From positions 1-33,532 of the IMG/VR virus record IMGVR_UViG_3300020306_000011: a stretch of DNA of 33,532 nt; one strand, given 5' to 3'. How positions within the stretch are numbered: the first letter of the stretch is position 1; the number at the start of each line of letters is the position of its first letter. The stretch comes from a virus (taxonomy: Duplodnaviria > Caudoviricetes). Made by a program: the position numbers and the translations under genes. Under the pieces are notes generated by a model, which did no database searches, was not told the origin of the DNA, and worked only from the letters and a program-made list of their open reading frames with translations. Positions 1 through 33,532 of the stretch are shown here, piece by piece.

Positions 1-631
1 AAAAAAGGAGAAGGTAAAATGAACAAGAAGCAAGAAGTTATGATAGAAATATCAAACAAAGTAATTGGTATGATGAAGGATCACGGAGTAAAGTGGTCAA
101 AGCCTTGGGTCAAAGCAGTAAAAGAAACTGGTCAACCAGTTAGTGCAAAGAACCGAGAATATACTGGTATCAATAGGATTAATTTATCACTGCATATTCT
201 AGAGCGTGATTATACTTCTCCAGTGTTTGCAACGTTCAAGCAATGGAAAAGCTTAGGAGCAAATCTTGTTGATGCCAAAGGCAAAGGGATTAAAGTGTTT
301 TTCTTCACAACTACAATGGTTGAAAGCAGAGAAAACAAGGACCGCAAAATAGCTGTTCCATGTTTCAAAGTTTACACTGTATTTAATGCCGATCACGTCG
401 AAGGATGGGATGGTAAATGGTTAGAAGATGAACAGGAAGATCTTACCCAAGATTGGAAAAACTTATATGATGTTGATGAACTTATTGCCCAAACTGGAGC
501 AGTAATCAGAGAACACAACTCTAATCAAGCGTTTTATTCTCCGTCATTAGATAAAATTAATATGCCAAGCAGAGCACAATTCAAAGATGCCCAAGGATTT
601 TATGGTACACTGTTCCATGAACTAATACATT
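1..631 (+). repeat. Left copy of 631 bp imperfect terminal direct repeat
   Basis: Aligns without gaps to 32902..33532; about 40 substitutions by manual codon comparison. Confidence 0.97.
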
Positions 632-915
632 GGACAGGACATGAAAGCAGAGAAAATCGAAAGTTTGGGATCAGACATGGTTCAGATCAATATGCATTTG
701 AAGAACTAATTGCAGAACTTGGCAGCGCTATGTTGTCAGGGATCACCGGAGTAGAAGCAGAGCCAAGAGAAGATCACGCAATCTATCTAAATAACTGGAT
801 GCAATGCTTAAAAGATAATCCGCAAGCAATTGTAAAAGCTGCATCAAAAGCAGAGAAAGCAAGCCAGTTTGTTCTTGATTGTGCAACCCAAGAAAAAGAA
901 ATGGAGGCAGCATAA
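19..915 (+). CDS. ardC: ArdC-like antirestriction / ssDNA-binding protein (DUF1738-like N-terminus plus zincin-like domain)
   Basis: W-x-KPW, Y-x-GIN, ATFKQW, Y-x-VFN motifs; AFYSPSLDKINMP, HELIHWTGH (HExxH) and YAFEELIAELGSA; RBS AGGAG at 6-10. Confidence 0.92.
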   Translation: MNKKQEVMIEISNKVIGMMKDHGVKWSKPWVKAVKETGQPVSAKNREYTGINRINLSLHILERDYTSPVFATFKQWKSLGANLVDAKGKGIKVFFFTTTMVESRENKDRKIAVPCFKVYTVFNADHVEGWDGKWLEDEQEDLTQDWKNLYDVDELIAQTGAVIREHNSNQAFYSPSLDKINMPSRAQFKDAQGFYGTLFHELIHWTGHESRENRKFGIRHGSDQYAFEELIAELGSAMLSGITGVEAEPREDHAIYLNNWMQCLKDNPQAIVKAASKAEKASQFVLDCATQEKEMEAA

Positions 916-1130
916 TGGTAATCAAGATAGATAAAGCAGTACAAGAGGAGGTGGCGAAAGAACTCGCCCCTCTTATCGGATGGGCAAATAATATAGATCA
1001 TTTTGCCGACGTCTTAGAAAAGTTATGCGGTCCTGAGTTTGATAAACAAACATTCAAAGAGGAAGGTTACAAAGCTTGGGAAAAAGCAAACGGTATTGGT
1101 GATGATTACATCCCATTCTTGGAGGATTAA
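915..1130 (+). CDS. Hypothetical protein (71 aa from ATG 915)
   Basis: TAATG stop/start overlap with ardC and upstream GGAGG; start preferred over 879. Confidence 0.75.
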   Translation: MVIKIDKAVQEEVAKELAPLIGWANNIDHFADVLEKLCGPEFDKQTFKEEGYKAWEKANGIGDDYIPFLED

Positions 1131-1283
1131 ATGAGCACTGTTAAAACAATTAAACTTACACAGACGCAGCTGGATATGCTGCGTGAAGCTTGGATGGGAT
1201 ACGACCCTGATTTCGGGGATGAAGTATACGATAAGCGTAGGATTAAAACATATGAAACTCTTAGAAAAAAATTATGGGAATAA
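1131..1283 (+). CDS. Hypothetical protein, 50 aa (MSTVKTIKLTQ...RKKLWE), not in ORF track
   Basis: GGAGG RBS at 1121-1125, ATG abuts previous stop, fills the gap exactly. Confidence 0.75.
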   Translation: MSTVKTIKLTQTQLDMLREAWMGYDPDFGDEVYDKRRIKTYETLRKKLWE

Positions 1284-1287
1284 ATAT

Positions 1288-1464
1288 ATGAACAAAGCAT
1301 TTTATAAAAAAGTAATGTCAAAGCTTTGTAAACATTGTGATGGTGATGGAAAGATTGAAGTAGAAGAATATTTTCCGCGTGGTTTTAGTAACGACATTGG
1401 AATAATCGGAACAAAATATATTGAGTGTGACGAGTGTAAAGGCACAGGAAAGGAGGAGGAATAA
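1288..1464 (+). CDS. Small DnaJ-type zinc-finger protein
   Basis: CKHCDGDG and CDECKGTG (two CxxCxGxG motifs); start at 1288 or 1315 rather than 1183. Confidence 0.8.
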   Translation: MNKAFYKKVMSKLCKHCDGDGKIEVEEYFPRGFSNDIGIIGTKYIECDECKGTGKEEE

Positions 1465-1668
1465 ATGGATGAAATAGATGATAGAGTTTGTTTATTTTAT
1501 GTTGCAAATAGACTCAATGAAATATGGGATTTATTTCAAGAGGACAATGCAAACAATGAAAAGCAAATTTATAATGCACTTGGATTGAAGGAGCTTGATA
1601 GGTTCAAACGTGAGTGTGTTTATAATATTGGGATTAATGCAATAAACAAAAGGGAGGAACAAGAGTAA
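1465..1668 (+). CDS. Hypothetical protein, 67 aa
   Basis: GGAGGA RBS immediately upstream; contiguous with previous gene. Confidence 0.75.
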   Translation: MDEIDDRVCLFYVANRLNEIWDLFQEDNANNEKQIYNALGLKELDRFKRECVYNIGINAINKREEQE

Positions 1669-1670
1669 AA

Positions 1671-1711
1671 GCAGAGGGGAGTTTTATACCTCAAGTGTTC
1701 TCCCCTCTTGC
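1671..1711. terminator. Intergenic hairpin (terminator or processing site candidate)
   Basis: GAGGGGAG (1674-1681) pairs with CTCCCCTC (1700-1707), extendable by GCA/TGC; 18 nt loop; no clean U-tract. Confidence 0.45.
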
Positions 1712-1722
1712 ATTATCTATTT

Positions 1723-1744
1723 TATTACTCCATACATGCAGCTA
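1723..1744 (+). promoter_or_regulatory. Operator-like site, copy 1 (TATTACTCCATACATGCAGCTA)
   Basis: 20/22 identical to 32622..32643; lies between TTGCAT (1708-1713) and ATG 1744. Confidence 0.7.
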
Positions 1745-2028
1745 TGAAAGCATATTTAGAAACAGTTCAGGATAAAGCTAGAGAAAATAAAATTGATTTA
1801 CTCAAGGCTTTTAAGGTAGCACAGATTCCAACTTCAACCTATTACCGAACTATCAATGGAGAAACTGAAATGCGTTTTGATACAGCGTGTAAAGTTTTAG
1901 ATGCGATAGATGAGCAAATCAGAAGAGACAAAGCGACCGAGTATACCAAACAACTACGAGCATCTGGTCAAGATATTAGTAGAAGCGAGGCGCGACAGGG
2001 GATTAAGCCAAGAAAACTTAAGCGATAA
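1744..2028 (+). CDS. HTH DNA-binding protein (Cro/XRE-like)
   Basis: LLKAFKVAQIPTSTYYRTINGETEMRFDTA helix-turn-helix pattern; ATG 1744 preferred over TTG 1708. Confidence 0.75.
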   Translation: MKAYLETVQDKARENKIDLLKAFKVAQIPTSTYYRTINGETEMRFDTACKVLDAIDEQIRRDKATEYTKQLRASGQDISRSEARQGIKPRKLKR

Positions 2029-2149
2029 GATTGGCTGCACTCCGACATTGGTTGGTAAATGGGAAGCATATCAAAGGATGCCTTCAGGTTTTATGTTAAT
2101 GTGTTGGTTGGAAGCTTTAGAATATGACATCGAAGCGATTAAAAGGTAA
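1910..2149 (+). CDS. XRE-family HTH transcriptional regulator
   Basis: ARRDRGLSQENLSDKIGCTPTLVGKWEAYQRMPS is a canonical XRE HTH. Confidence 0.88.
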   Translation: MSKSEETKRPSIPNNYEHLVKILVEARRDRGLSQENLSDKIGCTPTLVGKWEAYQRMPSGFMLMCWLEALEYDIEAIKR

Positions 2150-2435
2150 AGCTGCAACGTGTCAAAATTGTGAAATAAAAACATTTAAATTTGTTGCAAT
2201 ACTTAAACAAGAACATGAAGCAACAATGGTAAAACACTGGATAATATGTTTGGATTGTTATGAGCAAGATAGATGGCAAACAAAAATAAAAACAAAGGAA
2301 CATATCATGAAAAATGGTTTGTCGAATGGCTCAACAAAATTGGTGTCAAAGCAAAACGACAACCACTTAGCGGATCACTTGGAGGAGAATACTCAGGCGA
2401 TATCAAACTGGAAGTCAAAGAAATACAAATGGTAG
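2124..2435 (+). CDS. Hypothetical zinc-finger protein
   Basis: CQNC and CLDC pairs in the non-overlapping N-terminal half; C-terminal half overlaps the next gene. Confidence 0.6.
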   Translation: MTSKRLKGKAATCQNCEIKTFKFVAILKQEHEATMVKHWIICLDCYEQDRWQTKIKTKEHIMKNGLSNGSTKLVSKQNDNHLADHLEENTQAISNWKSKKYKW

Positions 2436-2626
2436 GAGAGGTAAAGTATAGAGATAAATCAAACTTTCCTAATCCATTCTCAGTATTAGAAGGTAGAGAC
2501 ATAGCCTTTTATAAAAGACGGAGAGGAACTCCGCAAACTTTAGTAATTATGTCTGGTAACATGTTTGAACAACTAATGGAGAATAGTAATGCAAGCTCAA
2601 ACGAAAGTAATCAAAGCACATCTTGA
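2273..2626 (+). CDS. PD-(D/E)XK nuclease, Hjc-type Holliday junction resolvase
   Basis: KNKGTYHEK, RQPLSG, GDI and EVK catalytic pattern. Confidence 0.82.
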   Translation: MANKNKNKGTYHEKWFVEWLNKIGVKAKRQPLSGSLGGEYSGDIKLEVKEIQMVGEVKYRDKSNFPNPFSVLEGRDIAFYKRRRGTPQTLVIMSGNMFEQLMENSNASSNESNQSTS

Positions 2627-2789
2627 AGATGGTAAAACAATTAATCCAATGGAAGCATTAATTTCTTATGGATGCTTTAGATTAGCCGCACGAATAAAAG
2701 ATTTAAAAGATAGCGGCATGATTATTGATAAGGTTATGAAGCAAGACGAAAACGGCAAACGCTATGCAATGTATTGGGAAGTAAAGTAA
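2589..2789 (+). CDS. Small winged-helix DNA-binding protein (HTH_39-like)
   Basis: HLEDGKTINPMEALISYGCFRLAARIKDLK...G-x-RYA-x-Y; RBS GGAG at 2578-2581. Confidence 0.85.
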   Translation: MQAQTKVIKAHLEDGKTINPMEALISYGCFRLAARIKDLKDSGMIIDKVMKQDENGKRYAMYWEVK

Positions 2790-3145
2790 TGTCTCAATTC
2801 AAAAAATATGATAGCGCAATGTCTTGGGATCAACTTATCAAACGCGGTAAAGATAAAACTGCTGTGAAAAAGGTAAGCAATCCAACTGGTTTTCAAGCTG
2901 ATAGTCTTCAGATAAATGCCAAAAGAATTAAAAATGGTGAGGACGTTGGACACTATTGGTTAGAAGGTAGATTGAAAAAACAACTACTAGAATACACGGA
3001 TGTAACAGAAGAAGATTTTAAAAAATATGTTGCACCAACTGCACAAATGCAGTATGTAAAACCATATAACTATAAAGAAAATAAAATTGGAGAAGATAAT
3101 TGGACAGAAGAAACTTCATCGGAGGATCTGACTGCGTTCAAATAA
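2789..3145 (+). CDS. Hypothetical protein (~118 aa)
   Basis: TAATG coupling to upstream gene; no recognisable motif. Confidence 0.7.
   Translation: MSQFKKYDSAMSWDQLIKRGKDKTAVKKVSNPTGFQADSLQINAKRIKNGEDVGHYWLEGRLKKQLLEYTDVTEEDFKKYVAPTAQMQYVKPYNYKENKIGEDNWTEETSSEDLTAFK
3038..3053 (+). promoter_or_regulatory. Operator-like palindrome ACTGCA-CAAA-TGCAGT within a candidate promoter for the recombination genes
   Basis: Same arms as 32627..32640; TTGCAC at 3030-3035 and TATGTA 17 bp later. Confidence 0.55.
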
Positions 3146-3891
3146 TGCATGAAGATTGGCTTGAGTTGTGGCTAGTCAAGACAGGGCGTAAAGAACCAGA
3201 AGATCTTTCGGAAATTTTACCAGTACAACTTGGTTCTTTTACAGAAGAATTTAATCTTGATTGGTTTAGTAAGCAACATGAAAACTGTGTTCTTACTCAC
3301 AAGCAATTTACTATGGAAAAAACAATCGAAGGCGTTCCATGTAAAGGAGCTGTGGATGCTATGTTTAACGGTCATGTTGTTGAAGCAAAACACACAAATC
3401 CTTTTTACAAAATGTCAGATGTTATCAACCGATACATGCCACAACTACAAATGTATTGTTATTTATCTGGTAAAGATGGGATCTGGTTATCAGTAATCTT
3501 TGGTAACTCAGATTACAAACATGTGTTCATAGATTTTGATTTGAAATATTTTTCAACTATGATGAAGCATGTAAAAAAATTCTGGGAATATGTAGAACAA
3601 GATCAGCAACCAAGAGTTGATGATGAAGTACCAGAAGAAGATTGTAATGTTGAAAGTATACCTGTTGATAAATTAATTATCCGCAATGCTGAGAAAGATA
3701 ACGAGTTTACAAGTTTATCAATAGATTATCATACGCATTATCATTCATATAAAATCTTTGAAAAGATCAAGCAAGATCTAAAGAAGATTATCAAGCCGAC
3801 AGAGAGAGAAGTATACAATGAATATCTTTCTGTCAGAAAAAATAAACGTGGTGCAATTAGTATAGTGAGGACTAAAACAGATGGAAAATAA
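3100..3891 (+). CDS. YqaJ / lambda-exonuclease-like recombination nuclease
   Basis: RRNFIGGSD, LWLVKTG, G-x-x-D, VEAK, Y-x-PQLQ-x-Y, FW motifs; TTG start with GGAG RBS. Confidence 0.9.
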   Translation: MDRRNFIGGSDCVQIMHEDWLELWLVKTGRKEPEDLSEILPVQLGSFTEEFNLDWFSKQHENCVLTHKQFTMEKTIEGVPCKGAVDAMFNGHVVEAKHTNPFYKMSDVINRYMPQLQMYCYLSGKDGIWLSVIFGNSDYKHVFIDFDLKYFSTMMKHVKKFWEYVEQDQQPRVDDEVPEEDCNVESIPVDKLIIRNAEKDNEFTSLSIDYHTHYHSYKIFEKIKQDLKKIIKPTEREVYNEYLSVRKNKRGAISIVRTKTDGK

Positions 3892-4327
3892 AAATTGGTT
3901 TGCAGATTTTAAAGAGTTTCAAGAGTCTGTAGATAAACCTGCAAAAGATTCAACAAATGATTTTTTTAACAGGCATAAGTATGCAAGCTTTGAAGCTTGT
4001 CTGGATGCAATCAAACCTGCATTGCATGAGCATAATTTTATATTACTGCAATCAAACAATCGTGATGAACTTGGTGACTATACTGAGACAAAGTTTGTTC
4101 ACAAAAGTGGGCAAGAACTTACAACTAAAGTTTATCTTGTCTTAGATAAAAACAATATGCAGGGCGTTGGTTCTGCAATAACTTATGCAAAAAGATATGG
4201 CATCCTTACTCTTGCAGGTATTGAGCCAGAAGTAAAAGACGATGATGATGGTAACAAAGCGTCAGGTGTAAGCAGCGCACCACCAAGTAAACCACAACAG
4301 CCAAAAACAAGTAAGTATGGATTATAA
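3881..4327 (+). CDS. erf: ERF-family ssDNA annealing protein
   Basis: K-x-x-x-N-x-FF..KYA, QGVGSAITYAKRYG and DDDGN signature. Confidence 0.93.
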   Translation: MENKNWFADFKEFQESVDKPAKDSTNDFFNRHKYASFEACLDAIKPALHEHNFILLQSNNRDELGDYTETKFVHKSGQELTTKVYLVLDKNNMQGVGSAITYAKRYGILTLAGIEPEVKDDDDGNKASGVSSAPPSKPQQPKTSKYGL

Positions 4328-4337
4328 GGAGGTAGAA

Positions 4338-4724
4338 ATGTCAGAAGAAAAAAAAGAATACGACAACCGTAATCAGGGAGCATTGGTACAACCGTATGAC
4401 CAAATGGAATTTGTTCTACAAGGTAAGCTTGATGTAGACGGACAAGAAATACACAGCGCTATCATTGCTGATACACTCAGGGATGGGCGTGAAATATTCC
4501 ATATATATCAAAGGGTTGGCGCATTGTTCAGAGGGCGCAATGATAAGGAAGGTGCGCCAGATTGGACAGGAAATATTTTTAATGAGAAAAATGTTTCAGC
4601 TTGGAAAAATATAAGTAAGAATGGTAATCCATATTTAAAGCTTAGAATTGATGAACGACAACAGCAACAGCAACAAGACACAAATCAACAGCCAAATGAT
4701 ATGGATGATGAAGTGCCATTTTAA
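4338..4724 (+). CDS. Putative single-stranded DNA-binding protein (DUF736-like, tandem repeat)
   Basis: YDN-x-N-x-GAL, GALF...PDWTG, SAW...G-x-x-YL; Gln-rich linker and acidic DDEVPF C-terminus; AGGAGG RBS before ATG 4338. Confidence 0.75.
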   Translation: MSEEKKEYDNRNQGALVQPYDQMEFVLQGKLDVDGQEIHSAIIADTLRDGREIFHIYQRVGALFRGRNDKEGAPDWTGNIFNEKNVSAWKNISKNGNPYLKLRIDERQQQQQQDTNQQPNDMDDEVPF

Positions 4725-4726
4725 TA

Positions 4727-4801
4727 CTCAATGCAGTGTAAGTTTTCTTCTCCATCCTTACACTCTTGAGCAACTACCCCCCAGAAATGGGGGGGCTTTT
4801 T
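4727..4801 (+). ncRNA. Candidate anti-Shine-Dalgarno small RNA (hairpin with pyrimidine loop plus terminator)
   Basis: Stem AGTGTAAG (4735-4742)/CTTACACT (4757-4764), extended by CTCAA/TTGAG; loop TTTTCTTCTCCATC; followed by an intrinsic terminator. Confidence 0.5.
4777..4801 (+). terminator. Rho-independent terminator
   Basis: CCCCCCA-GAAA-TGGGGGG stem-loop followed by GCTTTTT. Confidence 0.8.
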
Positions 4802-4812
4802 AGGAGAGAAAT

Positions 4813-5082
4813 ATGAAAGAATTAATAGAAACATATCCCGAAATGAAAGAGCGACATCGTAGAGAAATGATTGCTCTTGTAATGCAATTCAGCGACACAA
4901 TGACAGTCAATCAGGCTGCTGCTAGAATTGGTATGACCAAAGATAAGCTTAGAAAATTTGCATATGATAATGGAATATCTTTTCTACGCGCATATCAAAA
5001 AGGAAAGACTAATCACAGCACTCAACCATGTTATAAGCATGAAAGAAAAATAACTTTAAAAAATCCACCGTGGCTTTCGTGA
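4813..5082 (+). CDS. Small HTH-like protein
   Basis: MTVNQAAARIGMTKDKLRKFA helix-turn-helix pattern; AGGAG RBS. Confidence 0.7.
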   Translation: MKELIETYPEMKERHRREMIALVMQFSDTMTVNQAAARIGMTKDKLRKFAYDNGISFLRAYQKGKTNHSTQPCYKHERKITLKNPPWLS

Positions 5083-5122
5083 GAGAGACAGGGCGAAATG
5101 TCTCCCTCTATAAATTTTTAAT
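5081..5122 (+). terminator. Hairpin / probable terminator
   Basis: GAGAGAGACA pairs with TGTCTCCCTC (one mismatch), followed by an AT-rich tract. Confidence 0.5.
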
Positions 5123-5142
5123 TAATCGGAGAAAAAATTACA

Positions 5143-5358
5143 ATGATTAAAACATATTTTACTTTTATGATGATATTTTACACTGTGCAAGGTGAACAGG
5201 TAAAGACAAGCATACTGCTTCCTAGCTTTGATGATTGCTCATATAGTATAGATTATATGTCAAACATTTTAGAACCTTATGGCAAAGACGTAGCTATCCT
5301 TTGCAAAGGCACTAATGTTGTGTCAAAGGATTATATTAAACCAATGCCTAGACCATAA
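5143..5358 (+). CDS. Small putative exported protein with two Cys and Pro/Arg C-terminus
   Basis: Hydrophobic N-terminus, C...C pair, ends KPMPRP; GGAG RBS. Confidence 0.7.
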   Translation: MIKTYFTFMMIFYTVQGEQVKTSILLPSFDDCSYSIDYMSNILEPYGKDVAILCKGTNVVSKDYIKPMPRP

Positions 5359-5803
5359 GTTCAAAGTGTGGACCATCTATGAATGGTCTGCGCCCTTGCG
5401 CCCTTCTTAAATCTACATAAGAATTCATTGCATCTTGCATAGTAAAATCCCAATCAGCTATTGAATCTACATGCCAAGCTGCGCCCCACCTAATTTTTAC
5501 GTTATTATTTCTTGCTGCCTCAGCCATTGCATCAGCAATATCATCATAAAGATTCAGTTCCCAACTTGCCCGAGAACCAATGTATGCCATAAGATCAACA
5601 GCCAATCCGTCTAAATGTTTTGACTTCATTGTTTTACTTGCGCCTTTGGCAACCAACTCTCGTTGTTCATCCTCAGTTCTCATACCACATATTACTCCAA
5701 AATCTATTTTGGTTAGAGTGATTGCTTCTTTAACTACATCTTGCATCCTAGAGTCTACACCCTCTAGTTTTGCCATTGATCTTTCTGATAACTTGAACGC
5801 CAT
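5348..5803 (-). CDS. Endolysin, peptidase M15 family (L-Ala-D-Glu peptidase-like)
   Basis: F-x-LS-x-RS, G-x-RT-x-x-EQ, SKHLDGLAVD (SxHxxGxAxD), RWGAAW, DGPHFEL. Confidence 0.93.
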   Translation of the reverse strand: MAFKLSERSMAKLEGVDSRMQDVVKEAITLTKIDFGVICGMRTEDEQRELVAKGASKTMKSKHLDGLAVDLMAYIGSRASWELNLYDDIADAMAEAARNNNVKIRWGAAWHVDSIADWDFTMQDAMNSYVDLRRAQGRRPFIDGPHFELMV

Positions 5804-5805
5804 AA

Positions 5806-6192
5806 TTAACCTTTCTTAAAGAACTTTGTCGCAGAGCGCACAGCAAAGCTACTGGCTACGATAACACCTAAAGTGTACTGATACCACTCAGGCATCTGTT
5901 CCAGTGCTGTGAACCCCTCTGCAACGACTGTGCGACCCCATTCACCTGTGAACACTAAAATAAGTGGGATAGAAAAAAGTAAAACTAACCATTCGTCTTT
6001 CCAAGAATTCTGAGAACCCTGTGCCATAATCCTTTCCCAGTCTTGGACTGAGGTTTCTTTGGAGACAAGGATTTTTGCTTTGGCTTCGGCTTCGGTGAGT
6101 TTGAGTTTCGCGTTTGCTTGTTGGGCTTGGGTTTTGGCATTTAACCAACCTCCTGCTAGTTCAGTTATCGGACCTATTAGTGTCTGGAGCAT
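5806..6192 (-). CDS. Holin-like membrane protein (GTA 3TM-holin-like)
   Basis: Amphipathic N-terminus, SWKDEW followed by two hydrophobic helices, basic C-terminus; adjacent to endolysin; ATG 6192 with GAGG RBS (alternative start 6201). Confidence 0.7.
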   Translation of the reverse strand: MLQTLIGPITELAGGWLNAKTQAQQANAKLKLTEAEAKAKILVSKETSVQDWERIMAQGSQNSWKDEWLVLLFSIPLILVFTGEWGRTVVAEGFTALEQMPEWYQYTLGVIVASSFAVRSATKFFKKG

Positions 6193-32618: not shown

Positions 32619-32650
32619 TTGTATTACTGCATATATGCAGCTAGTATAGT
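32619..32650 (+). promoter_or_regulatory. Early promoter with perfect palindromic operator CTGCATATATGCAG (32627-32640)
   Basis: TTGTAT-N17-TAGTAT with the palindrome in the spacer; near-identical to 1723..1744. Confidence 0.7.
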
Positions 32651-32674
32651 CTTGTAAAAGATGGAGGATTTACA

Positions 32675-32901: not shown

Positions 32902-33532
32902 AAAAAAGGAGAAGGTAAAATGAACAAGAAGCAAGAAGTTATGATAGAAATATCAAACAAAGTAATTGGTATGATGAAAGACCACGGTGTTAAATGGTCA
33001 ACGCCTTGGGTTAAAGCAGTAAGAGAAACTGGACAGCCAGTCAGTGCAAAGAACCGAGAATACACAGGGATCAACAGAATAAATCTATCACTGCATATTT
33101 TAGAGCGTGATTATACTTCTCCAGTGTTTGCAACATTCAAGCAATGGAAAAGCTTGGGAGCAAATCTTGTTGATGCCAAAGGTAAAGGGATCAAAGTATT
33201 TTTCTTTACAACTACAATGGTTGAAAGCAAAGAAAACAAGGACCGCAAAATAGCTGTTCCATGTTTTAAAGTTTACACTGTATTTAATGCGGATCACGTC
33301 GAGGGGTGGGATGGTAAATGGTTAGAAGATGAACAGGAAGAGCTTACCCAAGATTGGAAAAACTTATATGATGTTGATGAACTTATTGCTCAAACTGGTG
33401 CAGTAATCAAAGAACACAACTCTAATCAAGCGTTTTATTCTCCGTCATTAGACAAAATTAATATGCCAAGTAGAGCACAATTCAAAGATGCTCAAGGATT
33501 TTATGGTACACTATTCCATGAACTAATTCACT
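32902..33532 (+). repeat. Right copy of 631 bp imperfect terminal direct repeat
   Basis: Same RBS and 5' two-thirds of the ArdC-like gene as 1..631. Confidence 0.97.
32920..33532 (+). CDS. ardC: ArdC-like protein, second allele, truncated by window end
   Basis: Open frame to the end; about 5 amino-acid differences from 19..631. Confidence 0.9.
   Translation, partial: MNKKQEVMIEISNKVIGMMKDHGVKWSTPWVKAVRETGQPVSAKNREYTGINRINLSLHILERDYTSPVFATFKQWKSLGANLVDAKGKGIKVFFFTTTMVESKENKDRKIAVPCFKVYTVFNADHVEGWDGKWLEDEQEELTQDWKNLYDVDELIAQTGAVIKEHNSNQAFYSPSLDKINMPSRAQFKDAQGFYGTLFHELIH

Follow-up and report, generated by a model that had tools for sequence, protein, structure and literature searches.

What is the role of a hairpin with a U/C-rich loop that lies directly behind the ssb-like gene of a podovirus? 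The phage is an IMG/VR record of 33.5 kb and 37% GC (IMGVR_UViG_3300020306_000011, positions 1 to 33,532), and this whole stretch is called the window here. The minus strand carries the structural genes, which are T7-like, and the plus strand a non-structural block: ardC, HTH genes, rusA, a winged-HTH (wHTH) gene, yqaJ, erf and the ssb-like gene. We call the plus-strand genes early-strand, a name taken from gene content and not from measured timing. Pfam matches were found for ardC (ArdC) and for the wHTH gene at 2589 (HTH_39). The ssb-like gene (4338..4724, plus strand), which has the element in its 3′ flank, is weakly assigned (PHROG 18154, E 3.4e-6; DUF736, E 0.03 only). Neither a polymerase nor an integrase was found among the 43 window ORFs scanned against PHROGs. 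By capsid, the closest cultured relative is Pelagibacter phage Hodr (MCP 54%). The MAGs that hold the MCP relatives are variously labelled (Rhodobacterales, Gammaproteobacteria, Opitutae, Methanobacteriota and others) and thus point to no single host for the window phage.

Some features of the early-strand region should be recorded at the outset. The contig ends (1-629 and 32902-33530) overlap with 93.8% identity, and 34 of the 40 differences are in third positions; two alleles of ardC are therefore represented, probably in a circular assembly from mixed strains. Because the ends overlap, a site in front of ardC at 7-13 is the same site as 32908-32914. A TGCA-N4-TGCA palindrome (32627-32640) lies inside a sigma70-like promoter ahead of the first early ORF, and most relatives have similar palindromes with a TTGAC-like -35 ahead of an apparently leaderless HTH-like gene (in the window, upstream of 1744). 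A second hairpin, with a CCTCAA loop (1672-1710), lies past the first early block and ahead of the 1744 promoter; it is present with other stems in L003, L286 and L216 and absent from distant relatives. In L002 and L003, the yqaJ and ssb alleles are about 50% identical to those of the window, within flanks and an element that are almost identical, indicating module swapping.

The element starts 3 nt past the ssb-like stop codon and is predicted to end at a terminator. All its parts are on the plus strand. The display hairpin (4727..4770; z -4.4) has an inner stem of 8 bp (4735-4742/4757-4764) and an outer stem (4727-4731/4766-4770), and holds a U/C-rich loop of 14 nt (4743..4756) that is complementary to the Shine-Dalgarno sequence (SD) and spacer of early-strand genes. 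A single-stranded linker with AACT follows (4771..4776), which also stands ahead of the terminator in many relatives (by inspection, uncounted), and then a predicted intrinsic-terminator-like hairpin with a T run (4777..4801), the probable 3′ end. The stem, its outer extension, the loop and the terminator are all present as the first-pass annotation had described them. The 75-nt fold of 4727-4801 has an energy of -27.6 kcal/mol (z -3.74), which was equalled by none of 200 shuffles. The stem probability is 0.98-1.0 in three of four terminated-transcript contexts and 0.61 in the fourth, and it rises to 1.0 when the coding part is blocked. An alternative fold, where the loop pairs with the 3′ codons of ssb, was dominant in one short context only and was rejected. 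Four RNA contig sets from the same sample or the same study, compared with positions 1-6000, yielded two short unrelated pieces, which is no evidence either way.

What would such a loop recognize? The first-pass annotation had read it as an anti-SD and named four ribosome-binding sites (RBSs), all of which are indeed there. They belong to the yqaJ-like exonuclease gene with a TTG start at 3100 (3088-3099, 11/12 matching; -11.0 kcal/mol with accessibility), the wHTH gene 2589 (2576-2583; -9.5), the first early-strand ORF, 32675 (32660-32668, one G-U pair; -12.4), and ardC (7-13; -11.9, scored at the 32920 copy). The best accessible site among 46 starts was absent from that list: the RBS of ORF 1465 (1452..1461; -13.8). 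All five predicted targets are on the plus strand. With opening costs included, ORF1465, ORF32675, ardC and yqaJ are the top four of the 46 window starts, and the fifth is a late-strand gene, 10957 (-9.9). The predicted duplexes are short (7-10 bp), and raw sites of equal or greater strength occur within coding sequence (29458 in terL, 2371 in rusA).

The window loop pairs better with early-strand starts (17, mean -8.9) than with late-strand starts (29, mean -5.7; P 0.0012), and the difference holds with accessibility included (P 0.007); the comparison of early with late RBSs that had been proposed as a check thus came out on the early side. A generic anti-SD, its sequence taken from general knowledge, gave P 0.052 on the same starts. 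Gene starts came from a simple caller of our own, with two manual additions in the window. When the three top-scoring starts were taken from each of nine genomes, whole or partial, 24 of 27 lay on the early strand, where 10.1 were expected and the generic anti-SD gave 8 of 27. The mean difference between early and late starts was significant in 5 of the 9 genomes only. The motif counts suggest that late genes are nearly devoid of whichever motif matches the loop of their own phage, a contrast that rests on three related genomes. Where the loop has UUCUC, GGAGAA is found at 28/89 early starts and 1/160 late starts. Where the loop has CCCUUU, GGAGAA is found at 7/65 early and 8/87 late starts, and AAAGGG at 10/65 early and 0/87 late starts.

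The element is not peculiar to the window, and many related marine podoviruses, all of them uncultured, have it too. Searches with an SSB alignment (the best 80 of 188 viral and the best 80 of 154 metagenome matches were used), together with earlier loci, provided at least 169 ssb stops, which formed 40 clusters when grouped at 75% identity. Among the matches listed, a U/C core lies within 50 nt past the stop in 17 of 39 ssb-like clusters, as against 28 of 958 other gene ends. The element is displaced one gene downstream in two further clusters, and about ten clusters are without it. Displacement by one gene puts it about 320-440 nt past the ssb stop in L215 and L244; in L215 about 13 nt of the terminator loop are complementary to the phage's own yqaJ RBS. 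The element comes in two forms. In one, a hairpin presents the core in its loop; of 15 such first hairpins, 14 have a z of -2.2 or lower. In the other, the core precedes a hairpin on its 5′ side and is often weakly paired by prediction. In some relatives the terminator loop carries a second, different U/C motif. L001, which is very closely related, has a U/C-rich loop of 16 nt in place of the terminator tetraloop (5199-5235), and the L277/L280/L358 group has a third hairpin with a U/C-rich loop after the terminator.

The first-pass annotation had proposed stem covariation and loop conservation in relatives as checks. The close relatives L006 and L286 show a compensatory stem change, whereas the stem of L007, L008 and L296 is unrelated, and across lineages the stems have no sequence in common and yet fold. 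An alignment count gave 73% paired and 3/8 pairs changed on both sides, a weak figure as the MAFFT alignment (A4) misregistered the L007 group by one column; folds of single sequences were used instead. The loop remains U/C-rich in relatives, but its exact sequence varies by lineage, together with the phage's own RBSs.

The element was sought more widely as well. Rfam, its C4 and cuckoo models included, gave no match at the gathering threshold in the window or in 12 related loci, and only sub-threshold matches at 4600-4900. A loose loop pattern found 120 stretches in viral contigs, 8 of them with a stem of at least 6 bp and none recognizable as this element. Among the matches listed for 80 Erf loci, it was seen in the close group only. 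No relative of the ssb-like gene was found in the GTDB genomes or cultured phages searched. Hodr has no gap 3′ of ssb, canonical GGAGG SDs and no such element, and none was seen in the intergenic stretches folded from MEP301, SI2 and CRP-804. In Hodr (L385), terS is separated from the first early gene by a long rod of very high stability (2670-3007; -101 kcal/mol over 338 nt).

Does the loop change with its presumed targets? For this test each loop, delimited by hand from the folds, was scored on the early-strand starts of every genome, and row and column effects were removed. Over 20 genomes the own-genome residual was -2.1 kcal/mol, and 0 of 200,000 permutations were as low (p about 1e-5, although the genomes are related and permutation p-values overstate their independence). 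A deeper subset of 15 lineages gave the same result. There are misfits: L314, L269 and L206 rank their own genome 14th, 10th and 15th of 20. When seeds were chosen by rule, the residual was -1.6 over 22 genomes (p 2e-5), and disjoint pairs had the expected sign in 8 of 11 cases, the other three having near-identical cores. A blind test took the commonest 7-mer of the early RBSs and looked for its reverse complement near ssb: 13 of 32 clusters had it no more than 110 nt from the stop, where 0.1 was expected; eight clusters with too few genes were left out, and the test failed in the window's own cluster.

The covariation can be followed at individual sites. The RBS of the yqaJ orthologue tracks the loop in most relatives through the states GGAGAAG, GGAGAAA, GGAGAACT, GGAGAACA, GGAGAT, GAGGAGTG and AAAGGG, with exceptions such as L248 and L299, and in one clade loop and RBSs are both of the AAAGGG type. 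The RBS of ssb itself often mismatches the loop (by inspection). The loop states are spread over several branches of the SSB tree (FastTree, weakly supported and used descriptively). The agreement extends beyond the SD. After GGAGA, the spacer has ACT 21 times and ACA 5 times in four genomes with an AGTTCTC loop, and 3 and 26 times in six genomes with a TGTTCTC loop. At three spacer bases, loop and RBS agree at 0.45, as against 0.16 by permutation (18 genomes). Spacer bases past the SD core lie outside what 16S rRNA reads, and host SD preference therefore does not account for their covariation. The family enrichment, the covariation, the blind test and the target bias give strong support to the proposal that the loop would address early RBSs of its own phage. 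On the strength of sequence comparison, the hairpin, its plus polarity, the family, the covariation of loop and RBSs, and the bias to the early strand can be taken as established.

What would the element do with these sites? We think it probable that it is a 3′-end RNA that blocks translation of the phage's own early-strand genes and so serves as a delayed feedback timer. Transcription of the recombination and ssb block would end at the terminator. The structured 3′ end would persist and accumulate, whether freed by a cut in AU-rich sequence at the stop codon or left as part of the mRNA. At ardC, yqaJ, erf, wHTH and small early ORFs, its open loop would pair with SD and spacer, roughly positions -15 to -4 relative to the start codon. 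Such pairing would exclude the 30S subunit, and early translation would close after a delay. This delayed negative feedback would hand the ribosomes to the late genes, which nearly lack the motif. Precedents for repression of this sort are OppZ and CarZ (PMC7398697), NfeR1 (PMC10746234) and icaR (PMC3868564). A promoter-like site is conserved ahead of the HTH gene at 1744, which suggests that ardC and the first ORFs are on a separate transcript; if so, action in trans would be needed.

The same pairing might serve a different purpose, namely immunity. The RNA would then silence kin, resident or superinfecting, at their early genes, and the divergence of loops and RBSs would define immunity groups, as for C4 of phages P1 and P7. 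Loop and targets do diversify jointly into several states, the window has an operator-like palindrome and HTH genes, and C4 loops are described as occluding RBSs, a 4-nt change limiting cross-reaction (PMC5320573, in the text available). We nevertheless consider immunity unlikely: the scanned ORFs include no integrase, the element lies behind recombination genes, whose expression is expected in the lytic phase, and GTTCTCC is common to many distant lineages, which makes for poor discrimination.

A still less likely purpose is a general anti-RBS shut-off with host mRNA as the main target, early phage genes matching through host-like RBSs. SDs of the GGAGA type are common in alphaproteobacteria, the loop of the AAAGGG clade resembles a 16S tail, and avoidance of the motif at late genes would follow as well. 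A host target, however, leaves unexplained why spacer bases covary with the RBSs of the same phage.

Alternatively, a protein might read the stereotyped RBS in the manner of RegA/RegB, and the hairpin of the minus strand would be a decoy with a copy of the RBS. The minus strand of the window element folds well (-27.7 kcal/mol), and the L251/L276 lineage keeps stereotyped RBSs (GGAGAAC) without the element. The strand evidence makes us doubt this strongly. G-U pairs favor the plus strand (56 vs. 25), the plus-strand fold is the more stable in 23 of 32 cases, and the T run follows on the plus strand, all of which points to an element read on that strand. The loops of L206, L214 and L222, moreover, match only through plus-strand G-U pairs.

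Control in cis of the gene that follows, 4813, which the first-pass annotation had offered as a second possibility, can largely be set aside. The loop would there pair with the SD in read-through transcripts. The hybrid in the window is -10.4, and blocking the 5′ arm is predicted to leave the SD less accessible (unpaired at 0.21 vs. 0.51), but this RBS (4803..4811, plus strand) is a weak, non-conserved partner (-6.9 with accessibility), downstream RBSs do not covary with the loop (25 loci, p 0.67), and the close relatives L286 and L296 keep a nearly identical loop without that SD. Finally, an ordinary tandem terminator or mRNA-stabilizing hairpin matching by chance, as short U/C motifs can match any SD, is scarcely credible in the face of the enrichment, the blind test and the covariation. 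We regard the element as real and conserved, its loop coevolving with the phage's own early RBSs, and as most likely a feedback repressor RNA.

How does such a repressor compare with what is known? No published description of this element was found in a search that covered few subscription papers. In the available text, no such targets are described for the small RNAs of PAK_P3 and PhiKZ (PMC4933390, PMC8545117) or for the RNAs in section 2 of a review (PMC12197685), and no such motif was found in PMC5737381. The supplements of PMC10690425 that were searched gave no match; its alignment archives and PDFs, outside the search, may hold the motif as an unnamed candidate. In each known RNA family for which a membership test could be run, the element appears to fall outside.

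In form, the element is like the cuckoo/alpha-r14 sRNAs of alphaproteobacteria (CcsR, NfeR1), which also show a U/C anti-SD loop on variable stems (PMC4615179, PMC10746234); NfeR1 occludes the ntrB RBS (PMC10746234). As far as these sources extend, the cuckoo RNAs have an invariant CCUCCUCCC loop, 2-4 hairpins and a host gene (PMC4615179, PMC10746234). The CCUCCUCCC motif is absent from the loop at 4743-4756 and from the loops of the relatives, and the window has one display hairpin instead of 2-4 adjacent ones with the same motif. The phage loop differs from lineage to lineage, in step with the RBSs of the same phage, and extends into the spacer.

In regulatory logic, the element is like OppZ and CarZ (PMC7398697) and to the 3′ UTR of S. 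aureus icaR (PMC3868564), where the 3′ end of a transcript pairs to its own translation-initiation region in negative feedback. The phage element has a predicted 3′-UTR location and shares its terminator with the mRNA, as do 3′ UTR-derived autoregulatory sRNAs, and it is predicted to pair back onto initiation regions of its own phage. The published examples, in the portions available, are host-encoded and act at one or few sites in one operon (PMC7398697, PMC3868564), whereas the phage element would act at many sites with one motif and probably on more than one transcript.

C4 of P1/P7, also a phage RNA, has loops that pair close to RBSs, and loop and target change jointly between relatives (PMC5320573, PMC6906374, in the text available). 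Such covariation is found in the phage element, too. C4, as these sources describe it, is a three-stem immunity RNA of temperate phages, processed by RNase P (PMC5320573, PMC6906374); our element has one hairpin and a terminator, no three-stem fold and no Rfam match. Few phage regulatory RNAs are known, and those compared here have either a single gene or the host as their target. If our reading is right, abundant marine podoviruses would have a means of timing that needs no protein: a compact RNA closing a whole early module by way of a shared RBS barcode.

The early RBS motif and its loop also have an analogue, published and unexplained, in the start-associated sequences (SAS) of cluster K mycobacteriophages. 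SAS is a stereotyped repeat at the RBS position of non-structural genes, and its conservation exceeds what pairing to 16S accounts for; four genomes have a single copy in opposite orientation, and the function is left open (PMC3203893, in the text available). The phages and the motif are unrelated to ours, SAS comes in that text without hairpin display or covariation (PMC3203893), and the RBS motifs of the window family are shorter than, and different from, the 13-bp SAS consensus. If the proposed role is right, stereotyped RBS repeats, SAS among them, would gain an explanation that can be tested. The element would also offer natural orthogonal sRNA-RBS pairs, testable by reporter swaps without phage culture. 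A conceivable, if tentative, generalization, which we put at somewhat short of even, is a private translational address code: early genes would carry a barcode in their RBSs that is specific to the lineage, one loop at the 3′ end of an RNA would read it and turn the whole module off, late genes would avoid it, and barcode and reader would drift as a pair between lineages, SAS suggesting that this may be a general, hitherto undescribed RNA-based switch from early to late expression in tailed phages.
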